5,416 nucleotides of DNA, taken from IMG/VR virus record IMGVR_UViG_2698536485_000013. The stretch is one strand, 5' to 3'. Positions 2 to 5,416 of this stretch are shown in pieces. How positions within the stretch are numbered: the stretch's first letter is position 1; the number at the start of each line of letters is the position of its first letter. This stretch comes from a virus (lineage: Duplodnaviria; Heunggongvirae; Uroviricota; Caudoviricetes). Under the pieces are notes generated by a model, which saw only the letters and a list, made by a program, of their open reading frames with translations, was not told the DNA's origin and ran no database searches. A program made the translations under genes and the position numbers.

Positions 2-808
2 GTCTCCAGGATTTCCGGGGCGGTTCAACAATCAATTGCAAATTATATCAGCCCAATGGCCCAGCTATGGGAGTTAGCTTCATCACGTTACCACGATGCA
101 CCAGAAAGGGCGCTCTCCTCCTGGCGAGGGCATAGGCTTGATGTGGCACAAAGTAGAGAGAGCTATGAGGCATTTTCTAACAAAGAGCTATTGCAGGTGT
201 TGCAAGTATTTTCCGGTAATTCAGCAGAAAACAAAGAAATGATAGCTTTGTGTCTTATCGGTGCTTATACAGGTATGCGGATCAATGAGATAGCAAGTCT
301 CACAATAGACGATGTGAAAGAGATCGAAGGTGTGCTGTGTTTTGAAATCACACAGGGAAAAACGAAAGCTGCGGCACGTGTTGTGCCTGTGCATAGCCTT
401 ATCACTCCATTGGTGTTATCTCTTCGTGAAAAGCCTCACAATGGCTTTTTGTTCTATCACGCCAGCATTACAGAGCGTGCTGATGGTAAACGTTCCACGT
501 GGCACACGCAGAGATTTACAAGAGCTAAACGAAAGGCTTTAGGGGAAAAGGGAACAGAAAGGAAGGTGTTTCATTCTCTGAGACACGGAGTAGCACAGCT
601 TCTTGATCGAAATCAAATTCCAGAAGACAGGATCGCCCTTCTCCTGGGCCATACACGCGGCAATACAGAAACATTCCGCACATATAGCAAGAATGCAGCT
701 TCTCCAGTAGAGCTTAAAAAATATATTGAGCTTCTACGCTACCCTGAAATAGAGAAAGGCTTATCAATCAATAAAAAATCAAATTTAAGGCGTAAAACAA
801 CGCCATAG
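2..808 (+). CDS. int: Tyrosine-type site-specific recombinase (phage-type integrase), C-terminal catalytic portion; 5'-partial, the reading frame is open to the left window edge
   Basis: The translation carries the tyrosine-recombinase catalytic signature in the right order: box I Arg (AYTGMRINEI), a Lys-containing beta-turn (TQGKTKAAARVVPV), HxLRH (FHSLRHGVAQLL), LLGH, and a C-terminal Tyr (TETFRTYSK). The frame containing ATG 56 has no stop between position 2 and 56, and 250 aa is short for this family, so the N-terminal arm/core-binding region probably lies upstream of the window. Stop is TAG at 806-808. Confidence 0.88.
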   Translation, partial: VSRISGAVQQSIANYISPMAQLWELASSRYHDAPERALSSWRGHRLDVAQSRESYEAFSNKELLQVLQVFSGNSAENKEMIALCLIGAYTGMRINEIASLTIDDVKEIEGVLCFEITQGKTKAAARVVPVHSLITPLVLSLREKPHNGFLFYHASITERADGKRSTWHTQRFTRAKRKALGEKGTERKVFHSLRHGVAQLLDRNQIPEDRIALLLGHTRGNTETFRTYSKNAASPVELKKYIELLRYPEIEKGLSINKKSNLRRKTTP

Positions 809-889: not shown

Positions 890-1603
890 CTATTCCTGTT
901 TAAAGGCAGGAGTAATAGTGTCTTCACCTTCACTACTTGATTTTTCAGTGTTAACACGTTTTTTCATATTAGCCCCGATGTTCTTAGATGGCTGTGTTTT
1001 GATAGCTACAGTGTTCACAGTGCCATAAGAAACTAATCTTATTTGCTCAAAGCTAAGATCAAATACCAGGGATTCGCTTGCCTCTTCTGTGTATTCGATT
1101 CCTGTTAAAACAACGTTCTCAAAAGTTTTATTTTCTGTAACAAGAAGAAAAGGCTGTCTACTGTCCATAATCTGATTCAGGTAGTCGATAGCTAATGATC
1201 TTCTGTTCCCGTTCACCCCTGCACTCTTTAACAAGCCAGGATCGCTTTTAATCGGTGTTTCAGTGATCCTTCCTTTAAGAGAAAACTTATTGTTTTTAAT
1301 TTGAACGTGATCAGACACAGTAGCACCATTTTCTACGGGGTAGCTTGTAACATCTGCCGAACGTCTCACGTTCACATCGTCAACACTATCAAAGGCCAGT
1401 GCCATATAATTTTCATAAACATCATTGCCAGAAGATGCCAAGCCACTGGTAACAATAGCAAATCCGTTCTCTCCTTTTGTTTTATTGGCTTTGCTATTTT
1501 CGTTTTTTGTAGAGTTTATATCTTGTTCTGCTTTGTAAACAGCCTGAACGTGTTGTTCTGGAGTATTTGCTGCACGTATGGTTAAAATCCCGGCGGTCGC
1601 CAT
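890..1603 (-). CDS. Hypothetical protein, 237 aa, last gene of the minus-strand operon; function unknown
   Basis: ATG at 1603-1601, with AAGGAAA about 13 nt upstream on the minus strand. Long uninterrupted ORF; the start lies 34 nt downstream of the 609-aa gene stop, same strand. The protein is rich in Ser/Thr/Asn/Val with a Lys-rich N-terminus and acidic C-terminus. No catalytic motif recognised. Confidence 0.7.
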   Translation of the reverse strand: MATAGILTIRAANTPEQHVQAVYKAEQDINSTKNENSKANKTKGENGFAIVTSGLASSGNDVYENYMALAFDSVDDVNVRRSADVTSYPVENGATVSDHVQIKNNKFSLKGRITETPIKSDPGLLKSAGVNGNRRSLAIDYLNQIMDSRQPFLLVTENKTFENVVLTGIEYTEEASESLVFDLSFEQIRLVSYGTVNTVAIKTQPSKNIGANMKKRVNTEKSSSEGEDTITPAFKQE

Positions 1604-1637
1604 AATAATAATTTTCCTTGTAATGTTATGGCGGGAA

Positions 1638-3467
1638 TTACCCGCCGTTGGATTGTCCTGATAAGCTGGTTAATGTTAATGATTTCAAGAAGCTATCCCG
1701 ACTTGCTCTCGCTGTAAAATCCACATAATCGCTTAATCTTGATGTGTCTGAATTAATAGTAAGAGGAACCTCTGTTACCACTTCAAATGTAGGATTCAGA
1801 TTAAACACAGGAGATAAATTATAAGCCGGAGTTGTCATTGCAAGATTATTTAAAGCACCCTGTTTGAGATTGGTTATCGGTGCTTCGCTGACTGACATTT
1901 TTACATCTGACACAGAAGAATTATCATCGAAAAGCAATCCCTTAATCGTGTTAAAGAGAGAATGACTATTATCAGGTGTAGTTGTTGCAGTGCCAGCGCC
2001 TTTATATTGGTCAGGAACGAGATTAGAAAGATGCTGTTTCATCCCTTCATTGCTTAATGGCGGTGCATCACCTAAATTTTTCTGAATAGCATCTGTCTTA
2101 TCATCATTACGATTAAACCAGTTTACAATCTTCATAATAGCTTCAAAGAGACTTCCTACAGCTTCTCCCAGCTTCGTAAAATACGGAGTGAGATTAGAAA
2201 GGTTTTTCAAAAACTCTTCCGTTACTTTTGGATCGAGAGATTTCATAAAGCCGTCTACGAATGCTACTTGTCTTGCATCAGAAAGCTGTGAAAGCTGTCT
2301 GTTTAGTTCTCTGAATTTAACAATAGAGTCTTGCTGTGTTTCTGTTAGCCATTTTCCAGAGGCTTTTTGCTGATTAATACTTTCTTGTACATCTTTAACG
2401 GAACGTTGCCAATATTTTGACGTAAGCATCAAATCATCGCCCAGGTCTTCTAAACGTTGTCCAATTTGGGAGTCTGAAAACCCTTTTTTCATCATTCCAT
2501 TAACAGCCTTAGAAATTAATCCAGCCGGATTATCAGCAAATTTTTTAAGGTCGCTTTTGTTAATAACACCGATGTTTAGAAGTTCATTAATAGCATTATC
2601 ACCGCCTTTCCATTCAGATTTTCCGGTTTTCTTGTCTTTCACCAATTCAGCTTCACTGTAGGATTTTGCGGCACGTTCCCTAACATCTTTCATCTGATCC
2701 AGGTATTTCCTAGCCCCTTGATCACCCATCATAGAGTCAACGCCGTTTCTATAGGCCCATTCTGTAATGTTGTACATCTGGTTAACGTCTACACCGCCAA
2801 GCCTTGCACGTTGAATTAGCTCTCCTTGTGTCTCAGCATTGGCAAAACTATTAGCCATAAATTCACCGGTTTTACTAACCGCCATCACGCCAGCAGCAGC
2901 CGTAGCGCCTCCAAATAACAGAGCGCCCATAGTGGCGGAATTCCCTGATCCTCCCTTAACGGGGGCTAATTGAACTTTTCTGTTGCCATTAATCTTACGT
3001 TGTTGTTGTTGTAAGCGTTTCATCTGGCTATTCATACGTGCAAGCGAGATAGCCCCTTGCTCATATTGTTTCGCTATCTCTCTAGCCTGTGCAATAGCTT
3101 TGTATTGTTCCGCTACAGAGAGGCGGTGCATTGCACTGATAGAGCTTGACACATCAAGGAGCTTTAATTCTGCTTTCTCTTTACGTGCTGCTATTTGTTG
3201 CTGTTGCCTTGCCTGTGCTCTTGCTGCGGCAGCTTGTGCTCTTTGATTCTGTTTTTCTGTTTTGGCTTTCTGTTGAGCAATCTTATCTACTTCGCTTTGT
3301 GCTTTCTTATAGCCTTTAGTGACATTATCAAATCTTAATTTAGCTGGCTTGATGTTTTCTGCGAATTCCTTTAAGCCTGTAATAGAGTCTTTCGCTTTTT
3401 TCAAGCTGTCTTTATCTACACTAAATGTAACTGTGTTCTTAATTTTAGAAGTGTTAATTTCTAACAT
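1638..3467 (-). CDS. Hypothetical large protein, 609 aa: N-terminal Lys/Gln/Ala-rich predicted coiled coil, a Gly/Ala-rich hydrophobic segment, then a large C-terminal domain; function unknown
   Basis: ATG at 3467-3465 preceded by AAGGGGA about 8 nt upstream; stop TAA at 1640-1638. Residues ~55-165 (nt ~2970-3300) are heptad-like and charged (AQQKAKTEKQNQRAQAAAARAQARQQQQIAARKEKAELKLL, RLQQQQRKIN). Residues ~172-200 (nt ~2868-2954) read GGSGNSATMGALLFGGATAAAGVMAV. The start lies 18 nt downstream of the 66-aa gene stop. Confidence 0.8.
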   Translation of the reverse strand: MLEINTSKIKNTVTFSVDKDSLKKAKDSITGLKEFAENIKPAKLRFDNVTKGYKKAQSEVDKIAQQKAKTEKQNQRAQAAAARAQARQQQQIAARKEKAELKLLDVSSSISAMHRLSVAEQYKAIAQAREIAKQYEQGAISLARMNSQMKRLQQQQRKINGNRKVQLAPVKGGSGNSATMGALLFGGATAAAGVMAVSKTGEFMANSFANAETQGELIQRARLGGVDVNQMYNITEWAYRNGVDSMMGDQGARKYLDQMKDVRERAAKSYSEAELVKDKKTGKSEWKGGDNAINELLNIGVINKSDLKKFADNPAGLISKAVNGMMKKGFSDSQIGQRLEDLGDDLMLTSKYWQRSVKDVQESINQQKASGKWLTETQQDSIVKFRELNRQLSQLSDARQVAFVDGFMKSLDPKVTEEFLKNLSNLTPYFTKLGEAVGSLFEAIMKIVNWFNRNDDKTDAIQKNLGDAPPLSNEGMKQHLSNLVPDQYKGAGTATTTPDNSHSLFNTIKGLLFDDNSSVSDVKMSVSEAPITNLKQGALNNLAMTTPAYNLSPVFNLNPTFEVVTEVPLTINSDTSRLSDYVDFTARASRDSFLKSLTLTSLSGQSNGG

Positions 3468-3485
3468 TTAAAATCCCCTTATTAA

Positions 3486-3686
3486 TCATTTTTTACCACC
3501 TTCTTTGCTTAAGAAATGGTGTAGAGCCTGATCAATACTCTCGTTTAGTCTGAACATACGGGCTTTTACTCCTTCATATGGAACATCTAAGAGAGAACAT
3601 AGATATTTCAGATTTAACAAGCCTCTAGAATCATTAGCATCTAAATGTACGTGTACACCATTTTTTGATTTCAGAATCACTTCCAT
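3486..3686 (-). CDS. Small hypothetical protein, 66 aa, tightly linked upstream of the 609-aa gene
   Basis: ATG at 3686-3684 with GAGAGGTGA about 7 nt upstream on the minus strand; stop 18 nt before the 609-aa gene start. Confidence is lowered by the short length and lack of recognisable motifs. Confidence 0.55.
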   Translation of the reverse strand: MEVILKSKNGVHVHLDANDSRGLLNLKYLCSLLDVPYEGVKARMFRLNESIDQALHHFLSKEGGKK

Positions 3687-3710
3687 ATTTTAATCACCTC
3701 TCAAAATTTA

Positions 3711-3755
3711 AAAATAAATAAAAAAAGGCGAAGCGTGTTATTCACGCCACGCCTC
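3711..3755 (-). terminator. Putative intrinsic (rho-independent) terminator or attenuator on the minus strand, between the 342-aa gene and the 66-aa gene
   Basis: Seen in sequence, read on the minus strand: GC-rich interrupted hairpin (3726-3730 AGGCG with 3751-3755 CGCCT; 3733-3737 GCGTG with 3743-3747 CACGC; loop TTATT), immediately followed by a T-rich run (reverse complement of 3711-3725 = TTTTTTATTTATTTT). It begins 18 nt after the 342-aa gene stop. Confidence 0.55.
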
Positions 3756-3772
3756 TATTACACGTTAAAATA

Positions 3773-4801
3773 TTATTTAACAGTGATTTGAACGGAGAAG
3801 CCAACGCCGTGGTTTACAACCATCTGGCTATTCTCTGTAACAACGTTAACAGCATCACCACGAGAAGATTCATAGCTGTAGCTATACACCTCAGCAGGAG
3901 CGGCATTGATCAGTTCAAAGGTGCTGGAAGCAGCCCCGTAGATGTTCTGATATACATTAGAGCCTTTAGCAAACTTCGGAACCGCTACAGCGTCTGCGGT
4001 CATATGTGCAAGGTGTAGCGGATCTACCAGTTTAACAACATCAATGTTAGTTCCTGGAATAGTGAACGCTGTCACCCCCGGTAGCAGGTCACGACGCTGA
4101 TACACAACGTTCCCTTCTTCCAGTGGGCTTACATACTGGAATGCGTTTGCCATACCCGCAGAGAATCGAATTGCAGAGAAGGCTTCAGGTTTACAGAACA
4201 CAACAACACGCTCAATGGTTGCAGCCTGTTTTTGTGCCTTAGCAATCATATCCGTAGCAATCTGATCAAATTCTTTAAAAATCTTCGTGGTGTCAGTGCT
4301 GGAAGCGTTCACAGTGGCTTTCATAGCTGATACGTTAAACAGCTTGCCCCATTCGATAAGAACATCATCAGTTTTAGGCGTGTAAGTTTTACCGCTAAAC
4401 AGAGATGCAGCCAGCACGCTCTCTTTTGTACGCTGATACGCTACGTGGTGTTTAGCAACATAGTCAGCATAGATATCAGTGAGTGTTTCCTGAAAATCAG
4501 TGCCAGGCTTACGCTTGCCTTGAACATCAGAAGGACGGATCACATCTTCACGAAGAAAATACGGGATTTCAATAAGCCATTCTTTACCTTGTTCTCGCTT
4601 AGTAACGTTGTGTTCAGAAGAGAAACGAGAGGTTTCTTTGTTAAAGAGAGATTCGTTGCTTTCGACAAGCTGGGAAACAGCTACTTTATGAGAACTAACG
4701 CCCACCGGATCAGTGAAGTCGAGGGTAGAGAGCAGAAAGTTACGCGTGCTGTGTGTCTGGAAAAGCGGAGCTAAATCAACGTAATCATTACCTAGAATCA
4801 T
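3773..4801 (-). CDS. Hypothetical protein, 342 aa, second gene of the minus-strand operon; function unknown (structural versus enzymatic not resolvable from sequence)
   Basis: ATG at 4801-4799 preceded by AAAGGAA about 7 nt upstream; long clean ORF, with only a 15-nt gap to the upstream gene remnant. Followed by the terminator-like hairpin. C-terminal third is rich in beta-formers (Val/Tyr/Ser/Thr). Confidence 0.8.
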   Translation of the reverse strand: MILGNDYVDLAPLFQTHSTRNFLLSTLDFTDPVGVSSHKVAVSQLVESNESLFNKETSRFSSEHNVTKREQGKEWLIEIPYFLREDVIRPSDVQGKRKPGTDFQETLTDIYADYVAKHHVAYQRTKESVLAASLFSGKTYTPKTDDVLIEWGKLFNVSAMKATVNASSTDTTKIFKEFDQIATDMIAKAQKQAATIERVVVFCKPEAFSAIRFSAGMANAFQYVSPLEEGNVVYQRRDLLPGVTAFTIPGTNIDVVKLVDPLHLAHMTADAVAVPKFAKGSNVYQNIYGAASSTFELINAAPAEVYSYSYESSRGDAVNVVTENSQMVVNHGVGFSVQITVK

Positions 4802-4816
4802 TTATTATTCCTTTTA

Positions 4817-4998
4817 TTAAGAAGTGAAAACAGAATGGAACCCTTCAAGCTGAAAGCCTTTTTTAATTAATGCTGTTTTTGCTGCTTCACTTACAGCATT
4901 CAGGGCATCAGCTTTGATGCATACAAGCCCAGCATTGCTACGTAGCACATCTACAGGCTTGTTTTCCCCAGCCGTTACAAATTCACTCAGAACAACAT
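4817..4998 (-). pseudogene. 3' remnant (~59 codons) of the operon's 5'-proximal gene, interrupted by the IS3 insertion
   Basis: The minus-strand frame is open from the IS3 junction (4999) down to TAA at 4819-4817 and continues into IS3 sequence. The only start in the ORF track (5014) lies inside the IS3 terminal repeat, so it is fortuitous. Tight 15-nt spacing and an RBS for the next gene support a real, formerly longer gene. Confidence 0.5.
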
Positions 4999-5037
4999 TG
5001 ATCTTACCCAGCAATAGTGGACACGCGGCTAAGTGAG
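4999..5037 (+). repeat. IS3 left terminal inverted repeat (IRL), approximate extent
   Basis: Established knowledge: the IS3 terminal inverted repeats are about 39 bp and begin with 5'-TG. The exact inner boundary is not verifiable here because the right end is outside the window. Confidence 0.6.
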
Positions 5038-5063
5038 TAAACTCTCAGTCAGAGGTGACTCAC

Positions 5064-5363
5064 ATGACAAAAACAGTATCAACCAGTAAAAAACCCCGTA
5101 AACAGCATTCGCCTGAATTTCGCAGTGAAGCCCTGAAGCTTGCTGAACGCATCGGTGTTACTGCCGCAGCCCGTGAACTCAGCCTGTATGAATCACAGCG
5201 CTACAACTGGCGCAGTAAACAGCAAAATCAGCAGACGTCTTCTGAACGTGAACTGGAGATGTCTACCGAGATTGCACGTCTCAAACGCCAGCTGGCAGAA
5301 CGGGATGAAGAGCTGGCTATCCTCCAAAAGGCCGCGACATACTTCGCGAAGCGCCTGAAATGA
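5064..5363 (+). CDS. insE: IS3 transposase OrfA (helix-turn-helix DNA-binding and leucine-zipper component)
   Basis: The protein MTKTVSTSKKPRKQHSPEFRSEALKLAERIGVTAAARELSLYESQ...LKRQLAERDEELAILQKAATYFAKRLK matches IS3 OrfA as I recall it. ATG at 5064 has GAGGTGA 5 nt upstream. The ORF track's start at 5055 is an in-frame GTG and is probably not the real start. Stop TGA at 5361-5363. Confidence 0.9.
   Translation: MTKTVSTSKKPRKQHSPEFRSEALKLAERIGVTAAARELSLYESQRYNWRSKQQNQQTSSERELEMSTEIARLKRQLAERDEELAILQKAATYFAKRLK
5326..5363 (+). promoter_or_regulatory. Probable programmed -1 ribosomal frameshift region of IS3 (A-AAG slippery motif near the orfA 3' end, upstream of the orfA/orfB overlap)
   Basis: Seen in sequence: CAA AAG at 5325-5330 in the orfA frame, followed by GC-rich sequence and the ATGA overlap. 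Established knowledge: IS3-family elements make the OrfAB transposase by -1 frameshifting. The exact slip site is assigned from memory and is not verified. Confidence 0.4.
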
Positions 5364-5416
5364 AGTATGTCTTTATTGAAAAACATCAAGCTGAGTTCAG
5401 CATCAAAGCAATGTGC
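5360..5416 (+). CDS. insF: IS3 transposase OrfB (DDE catalytic component), first 19 codons only; 3'-partial at the window edge
   Basis: ATG at 5360-5362 overlaps the orfA stop (ATGA) in the -1 frame and encodes MKYVFIEKHQAEFSIKAMC, the recognisable N-terminus of IS3 OrfB. Confidence 0.85.
   Translation, partial: MKYVFIEKHQAEFSIKAMC

Follow-up and report, generated by a model that had tools for sequence, protein, structure and literature searches.

A small conserved gene with a putative helix-turn-helix module precedes the tape-measure gene in an apparent family of phage satellites of Enterobacteriaceae

The stretch of DNA analysed here, a window of 5,416 nucleotides from the viral record IMGVR_UViG_2698536485_000013, belongs to an island on the Escherichia coli chromosome, flanked by the pao (paoABCD) genes on one side and by thrW, a tRNA-Thr gene beside proA, on the other. 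The whole minus-strand operon of the island in the window extends over positions 890-4801, and the features considered in this work are the following:

26..808, plus strand: C-terminal fragment of a tyrosine integrase of the DUF6538 type, its N-terminus split off by another IS3-family element
890..1603, minus strand: 237-aa Dit_like protein (tube initiator), 60% identical to phi92 gp135
1638..3467, minus strand: 609-aa homologue of tape-measure proteins (TMP), PHROG 16051 'tail length tape measure protein', E = 9e-54
3468..3485, minus strand: 18-nt spacer between the 66-aa ORF and the TMP gene, holding the Shine-Dalgarno (SD) site of the TMP gene, AAGGGGA, at 3480-3474
3486..3686, minus strand: 66-aa ORF, with ATG at 3686-3684 and TGA at 3488-3486, RefSeq WP_001308407.1 'hypothetical protein'
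3694..3702, minus strand: SD site GAGAGGTGA, 7 nt before the ATG of the 66-aa ORF
3714..3753, minus strand: intrinsic terminator between the capsid gene and the 66-aa ORF, an imperfect GC-rich hairpin at about 3727-3753 followed by a T-run
3773..4801, minus strand: 342-aa major capsid protein (Phage_cap_E), 22% identical to the phi92 capsid protein gp124, the first complete gene of the operon in the window
4817..4998, minus strand: 3' remnant of a 120-aa gene, interrupted by an IS3 element from about 4999; in intact islands this gene stands ahead of the capsid gene

The IS3 elements are located at about 4999-5416, where the 120-aa gene is cut, and at 1-25, where an IS3-family element has disrupted the integrase; the structural genes of this copy are intact, but the copy is probably immobile. 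The preliminary description of the window, made from its letters without database searches, had drawn attention to a small ORF with a good ribosome-binding site, directly upstream of the 609-aa gene across a gap of 18 nt and downstream of an attenuator. The coordinates agree with this account: the SD site is a strong one, the gap has the length described, and the 'attenuator' corresponds to the intrinsic-terminator-like hairpin that follows the capsid gene. A scan for the terminator consensus gave one site against 0.3 expected, a promoter scan found no sigma-70 promoter between the terminator and the 66-aa ORF, and an Rfam scan of the window matched no RNA family.

Chance ORFs are plentiful in this AT-rich window, which contains 47 ORFs of at least 30 aa, and since the size of the 66-aa ORF is easily reached by chance in such DNA, its reality rests on conservation. 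Of 5426 complete E. coli genomes, 294 carry the segment with 95-100% nucleotide identity, on the chromosome every time. All ten E. coli copies that were examined (the window, L002 and L015-L022) have the ORF intact and annotated, and the stops and frameshifts that had been named beforehand as a refutation are seen in none of them; disrupted variants are rare singletons. The comparison of synonymous with non-synonymous substitutions, likewise proposed at the outset, yields a population pN/pS of 0.042 for the E. coli copies (Nei-Gojobori), which is below the values of all the neighbouring genes (capsid, 0.14; TMP, 0.13; Dit-like, 0.08), and 12 of the 17 segregating sites fall at third codon positions. 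The sole length variation comes from an A-run at the 3' end of the ORF (window 3489-3494), which is A3, A5 or A6 among the E. coli copies and sets the C-terminal tail of the protein as ...GGK, ...GGKND or ...GGKK; the same polymorphism shifts the spacer to the TMP start, between 14 and 19 nt, and never opens the ORF further. The 66-aa ORF is a genuine, strongly conserved gene.

The 609-aa product had been described as a large coiled-coil protein; as the neighbour of the small gene it stands, whereas its identity is corrected to a tape-measure protein homologous to those of phi92-like myophages. In tblastn searches it matches TMPs of Stephanstirmvirinae, from myophages like phi92, rV5 and Phapecoctavirus; with phi92 gp134 it has 53% identity over the N-terminal 66 aa, and with the TMP of phiWec188 it can be aligned over its full length (E = 8e-58). 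The TMPs of the islands measure 609-632 aa, versus 651-659 aa in the phages (659 aa in phi92). According to a cryo-EM study of 2026, gp135 is the hexameric tail-tube initiator and gp134 the trimeric TMP of phi92 (PMC13450770). The TMP gene of one E. coli island (L002 16616-18453) and the capsid gene of another (L016 2934-3963) are annotated as frameshifted, with the 66-aa ORF intact in both, which may reflect either decay or an assembly error.

Islands of this family are about 10-12 kb in size, with intact copies found, for example, at 14506 to about 26000 in L002 and at about 2400-13300 in L010. The gene order in the intact island of L002 is integrase, (Dit-like gene), TMP gene, small ORF, capsid gene, 120-aa gene, small uncharacterised genes and a gene for an HTH_36 replication-initiator-like protein. 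For the family in general, in which the small ORF is a core gene, the usual order is integrase, replication-initiator-like gene, small uncharacterised genes, 120-aa gene, capsid gene, terminator, small ORF, TMP gene and, in some islands, the gene of a tube initiator. Portal, terminase, sheath, tube and lysis genes were found in none of the islands examined; what they do have, namely integrase, Rep-like protein and some of the virion genes, is the gene content of a satellite. Among complete E. coli genomes about 5% carry the family, as do many Klebsiella, Enterobacter, Cronobacter and Pantoea. Its gene content makes a phage satellite the most likely identity of the island, one that would assemble part of its own virion with a phi92/rV5-like lytic myophage, among the large lytic phages of E. 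coli and Klebsiella, as helper; we infer the identity of this helper solely from the 60% identity of the tube initiator and the 53% identity of the TMP N-terminus. In the literature, which we have covered incompletely, so that an earlier account is possible, no description was found of the island, of its RefSeq proteins or of satellites of phi92/rV5-like phages, and the island family has apparently not been described before.

Two further features of the islands deserve mention. At the far end of the L002 island, a gene-poor region of about 2.6 kb (23003-25614) contains about four tandem 22-bp iterons (TAGCTCACTATGACCTACCCCC) at 24231-24315, which may be an origin for the Rep-like protein; Rfam gave no family match on this region, and similar gene-free regions of 1.6-2 kb occur in Klebsiella, Cronobacter and JGI loci. 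Secondly, a cargo gene for an EAL-domain protein (c-di-GMP phosphodiesterase) is located between the tail genes and the integrase (L007 12079-12750, L024 11778-12449); the islands with this cargo are L007-L009, whose small-protein cluster is named 'Enterobacteriaceae', and L024, with a cluster of the Cronobacter type.

Among known systems, the closest are the PLE satellites of Vibrio cholerae, which carry tmp and tac, in some cases a hub gene as well, and form chimeric, shorter tails on ICP1 (Mathur, Boyd et al., Nature 2026, PMC12987554); the genes are clustered as tac-tmp-bhuB, and the PLE TMP is essential for transduction (PMC12987554). Both groups are chromosomal islands, and the E. coli island appears to parasitise, as the PLEs do, a lytic myophage. 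Both encode a TMP of their own, that of PLE11 being 95 aa shorter than the ICP1 protein and that of the window 609 aa long versus 659 aa in phi92, and both have, besides a small gene next to tmp, a gene for a homologue of a central part of the baseplate or tube. They differ in island family and in host, and the E. coli island adds its own capsid gene. The cf-PICIs and P4-like satellites of Enterobacteriaceae are likewise small, integrase-bearing islands with structural genes; cf-PICIs produce their own capsids and some have putative tmp genes (PMC12987554, Extended Data Fig. 10). The present island, however, has neither the portal, protease, head-tail connectors and terminase that are the hallmarks of cf-PICIs nor the Sid/Psu/Delta/primase set of P4, and its tail genes suggest large virulent myophages, not temperate phages, as helpers.

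The arrangement around the small gene was compared across eight lineages (the window, L007, L010, L013, L024, L025, L026 and L027), and the coupling to the 609-aa gene that the preliminary description proposed is upheld as a conserved linkage: in all eight, the small ORF is directly upstream of a TMP-like gene of about 620 aa, and it is downstream of the capsid gene in every lineage whose contig extends that far. The Dit-like gene is present in some of the eight lineages only. In six (L007, L010, L024, L025, L026 and L027) the stop codon of the small ORF overlaps the TMP start, a TAATG overlap that was read directly in L007 and L010 and is apparent from the coordinates in L024-L027; the E. coli alleles have a spacer of 14-19 nt and Pantoea one of 50 nt. 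The spacers preceding the small ORF in the window, in Klebsiella/Enterobacter L007 and L010 and in Pantoea (the near-identical L013 and L014) were folded, and a hairpin followed by a T-run was obtained in all four island lineages, with different sequences. The small ORF is thus grouped with the TMP gene behind a terminator, which implies that it is expressed together with the TMP and at a level below that of the capsid.

An exhaustive HMMER search identified homologues of 62-67 aa at 35-55% identity, those in other genera having 30-55% identity to the 66-aa protein, and a profile search collected at least 130 protein clusters, none of them named. The family is represented in Klebsiella, Enterobacter, Cronobacter, Pantoea, Raoultella and Pluralibacter. 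A search of genome contigs with the capsid protein added one further Escherichia locus only, which ends before the 66-aa ORF, and a metagenomic homologue, P0008, was left out because its contig is full of errors. No family member was found in a phage, a tblastn search of phage genomes with the small protein (E <= 10) giving only noise, and Pfam, NCBIfam and PHROG assigned no family to the 66-aa protein. An alignment of 50 sequences (A2) reveals invariant I4 and K6 and nearly invariant L5, S7, L33, Y37, R43, A54 and K61, and the N-terminus, MxLILKS, is nearly invariant as a whole. The AF2 model calculated from this alignment consists of a short N-terminal β-hairpin and helices at residues 20-32, 37-46 and 51-62; its confidence is moderate (mean pLDDT 68.6, with 75-81 in the core), and the conserved MxLILKS N-terminus is unmodelled. 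Some members of the family are near neutral in net charge (pI 6.8-8.9).

Several comparisons link the predicted helical part of the protein to helix-turn-helix (HTH) domains. Against PDB sequences, the sole matches of the family profile are HTHs of sigma region 4 and of CAP, at E = 0.05-1, and in this alignment helix 37-46, on which the nearly invariant Y37 and R43 are located, falls on the sigma recognition helix. Family members have weak, sub-threshold matches in Pfam to Sigma70_r4_2 (best E = 0.007), HTH_17, HTH_29 and Rv2175c_wHTH, and in PHROGs weak matches to transcriptional repressor, HNH endonuclease, TerS and excisionase families, all of them DNA-binding; no tail chaperone family is among the PHROG or Pfam matches of the members. 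The A2 profile also retrieves the multi-repeat proteins P0021, P0023, P0016 and P0022 with E values of 8e-23 to 6e-10, referred to a library of 1.8 billion proteins, and these consist of 3-9 tandem copies of a module of about 40 aa akin to residues ~21-62 of the 66-aa protein. Two of them pass the Pfam cut-off of 27 bits for the I-HmuI_NUMOD-like family (P0021, 42.3; P0023, 30.3) and P0022 is below it with 21.6; the Sigma70_r4_2 matches of P0022 and P0023 are under the cut-off of that family. The link from the 66-aa protein to the NUMOD-like family is transitive, through the multi-repeat proteins. On inspection, P0021 (515 aa), P0023 (429 aa), P0016 and P0022 are almost wholly composed of a tandem module of about 50 aa, 'F.F.G..Y.S..ECC...GV....V..R..R.GCS.EEAI.HF', which is shared with the body of the 66-aa protein.

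From these sequence matches and the structure model, which together give moderate support, residues ~21-62 of the 66-aa protein would form a module of the HTH type. The resemblance to NUMOD-like/I-HmuI-type and sigma-70 region 4 modules consists in the alignment of the segment of about 40 aa and in the predicted three-helix topology. The 66-aa protein differs in being a stand-alone protein with an additional conserved N-terminal hairpin; its direct matches to the curated families are sub-threshold, and DNA binding is putative.

The evolution of the small gene is distinct from that of its neighbours. In a test of the mirror-tree style on seven lineages, the identity of the small protein did not correlate with that of the capsid protein or the TMP (r about 0). 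Between L007 and L026, the capsid proteins are 90% identical, the TMPs 62% and the small proteins 31%; at the nucleotide level, identity drops from 70-98% to 33-58% exactly over the terminator and the small ORF (L007 9930-10200) and recovers inside the TMP gene. The terminator and small ORF are the most divergent, cassette-like segment between these two islands, and capsid and TMP types are reassorted among lineages as well. Such lineage-wise turnover argues against tight co-evolution with the TMP. A gene that is under strong constraint within a lineage and is replaced, or has rapidly diverged, between lineages behaves as specificity determinants typically do, among them repressors and DNA-recognition subunits.

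Among the possible functions, we tentatively favour, with a confidence somewhat short of even, that of a small HTH protein, expressed together with the satellite TMP, which acts through DNA binding as a specificity or regulatory factor. The preliminary description had suggested chaperone, adaptor or regulator roles, including antitoxin- or immunity-like ones, which the analysis did not support; sequence and predicted fold point to an HTH module. The protein would be produced from transcripts that read through the terminator behind the capsid gene, and translated from its own strong SD site, with translational coupling to the TMP gene in six lineages out of eight. Built from a β-hairpin and then a three-helix HTH-like module of NUMOD-like/sigma-70 region 4 type, the protein would bind DNA at the late stage and might then act as a lineage-specific recognition or regulatory factor that marks the island DNA or tunes the late (tail) genes; it would not be a classical tail assembly chaperone (TAC). 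DNA binding is suggested here by sequence likeness, and the target and role just outlined are speculative. Several observations weigh against this assignment: every single HTH match is below its family threshold, the AF2 model is only moderate and leaves the conserved N-terminus out, the charge of some members is close to neutral, and in tailed phages and PLEs the slot just 5' of the TMP gene, translationally coupled to it, is that of the tail assembly chaperone.

That last observation is the starting point of the strongest alternative, which we regard as clearly less probable though still substantial, namely that the 66-aa protein is a dedicated assembly partner, a mini-chaperone or adaptor, of the satellite TMP. 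Made in a fixed ratio with the TMP, it would keep this protein soluble, or would steer the satellite rather than the helper TMP into tails nucleated on the helper baseplate, as the functional equivalent of the TAC encoded by PLE tac-tmp or of the T-domain of phi92 gp132-133. The genomic context is in agreement with such a role: the gene is immediately 5' of the TMP gene in all eight lineages, with a stop/start overlap in six, is grouped with it behind the post-capsid terminator and holds the slot of phi92 gp133; PLE satellites, in which the TMP is required for transduction, carry tac beside tmp (PMC12987554); and the nearly invariant but unmodelled N-terminal strand (MxLILKS) could fold on a partner.

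The phi92 slot upstream of the homologous TMP gene, which is followed by the tube initiator gene (gp134, gp135), is occupied by gp132 (160 aa) and gp133 (75 aa). The gp133 frame is open over the 85 nt that precede the gp132 stop, and in phi92 as in phiWec188 this stretch contains the heptamer T TTT TTC; from this sequence, gp133 extends the tail assembly chaperone gp132 by a -1 frameshift of the classical lambda G/GT type. The database records list gp133 as a hypothetical protein of its own, starting at TTG, and leave the frameshift unannotated (phi92 L005 5622-5981, phiWec188 L006 4632-4985). The 66-aa ORF shares this position. Homology to gp133 was rejected, as BLAST, which gave no similarity to gp132 either, and a profile-profile comparison with an alignment of 11 gp133 sequences (hhalign probability 0.3%) gave nothing and the shared N-terminal tetrapeptide 'EVIL' is too short. 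There is no G-like partner ORF upstream and no usable slippery site for a frameshift, the ORF has its own SD site and ATG, and upstream of it are a terminator and a capsid gene rather than a tube gene. A fusion with the TMP by frameshift or readthrough was rejected as well: the two ORFs are in the same frame but a TGA and a TAA lie between them, and beyond the A-run a stop follows within a few codons in either of the shifted frames.

The chaperone role suggested in the preliminary description accordingly finds no counterpart in similarity to known tail assembly chaperones, whether gp132/gp133 or the PLE/HK97 TAC fold; the PLE1 and HK97 TAC structures are absent from the structural matches of the 66-aa protein, and the Pfam and PHROG matches include no TAC family. 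With 62-67 aa, the proteins are about half as long as known TACs, and they do not co-vary with the TMP, as the pair L007/L026 illustrates. Compared with PLE tac, then, the 66-aa gene encodes no recognisable TAC and is half as large and apparently HTH-like. Lacking gp132/gp133-type similarity and a partner ORF, the 66-aa ORF is at most a positional analogue of a chaperone gene, and because TAC similarity and co-variation are both missing, a partnership with the large protein is suggested only by context.

In a further proposal, which we consider unlikely, the protein would be a new kind of tail-hijacking factor, a minimal HTH-derived adaptor that couples the satellite TMP, and possibly the end of the satellite DNA too, to helper tail assembly, and that takes the place of the frameshifted G/GT-type chaperone of the helper, with rapid cassette turnover setting the helper or the DNA that is served.

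A special case of DNA binding, to which we assign a distinctly low probability, is a role in packaging specificity. The island has a capsid gene and neither terminase nor portal, so that it must somehow get its own DNA chosen for packaging, and a protein with TerS-like or Rpp-like DNA recognition could direct the large terminase of the helper to island DNA. The HTH resembles TerS N-termini, two members weakly match a PHROG TerS family, and lineage-specific cassette behaviour is what would be expected of a specificity determinant. Yet the protein is too small to hold a TerS oligomerisation domain, the TerS matches are marginal (E about 0.01, in 2 of the 50 members), no pac or cos site was identified, and a slot between the capsid and TMP genes is unusual for packaging genes.

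Still less probable is a function as excisionase, antitoxin, immunity protein or late activator of the Ogr/Delta type, to which the small size of the protein would be suited. Two members weakly match HTH_17 and one the PHROG 'excisionase and transcriptional regulator', but the gene is 2-2.7 kb from the integrase, separated from it by the TMP gene (and the Dit-like gene), and belongs to a late structural operon; expressed behind the capsid gene, it would come too late for excision. The antitoxin- and immunity-like roles suggested earlier lose their footing with the identification of the neighbour as a structural TMP rather than a toxin, and no toxin domain was found in the genes neighbouring the 66-aa ORF. 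Satellite P4 has a small activator gene, delta, within its morphogenetic operon and so provides a precedent for a late activator, but the zinc-binding Cys pairs of such proteins are missing here, where a single Cys is semi-conserved. The antitoxin, immunity, excisionase and zinc-finger activator readings thus fail their defining features.

Finally, that the ORF has no functional protein product, being spurious (the preliminary description allowed for an overcalled ORF) or a leader in which translation alone counts, would fit its shortness in AT-rich DNA with many ORFs of similar size, and coupling to the TMP could in principle be its sole function, but a pN/pS of 0.04 and an amino-acid pattern kept at 30-55% identity across genera, at constant length and in at least 130 homologous clusters, stand against it, and by these conservation data the reading is already effectively refuted.

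Satellite-encoded tape-measure and tail-chaperone genes were demonstrated only in 2026, in the Vibrio PLEs (PMC12987554). The island family considered here is widespread in Enterobacteriaceae, and its capsid protein, TMP and sometimes tube initiator are related to those of lytic phages of the type used in therapy (relatives of phi92 and rV5). The 66-aa gene is the single invariant uncharacterised component of the tail module of these islands, and, being small and simple to delete and to purify, it makes the question of its function directly testable. Should the protein prove to be a tail-hijacking factor, the islands would be the first family of satellites in Enterobacteriaceae that exploit large virulent myophages (phi92/rV5-like) and form chimeric tails and a capsid of their own. 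Whether DNA or the TMP is its binding partner would reveal how the islands redirect the assembly of their helper, and the role of the gene could also account for strain-specific failures of phi92/rV5-like phages.
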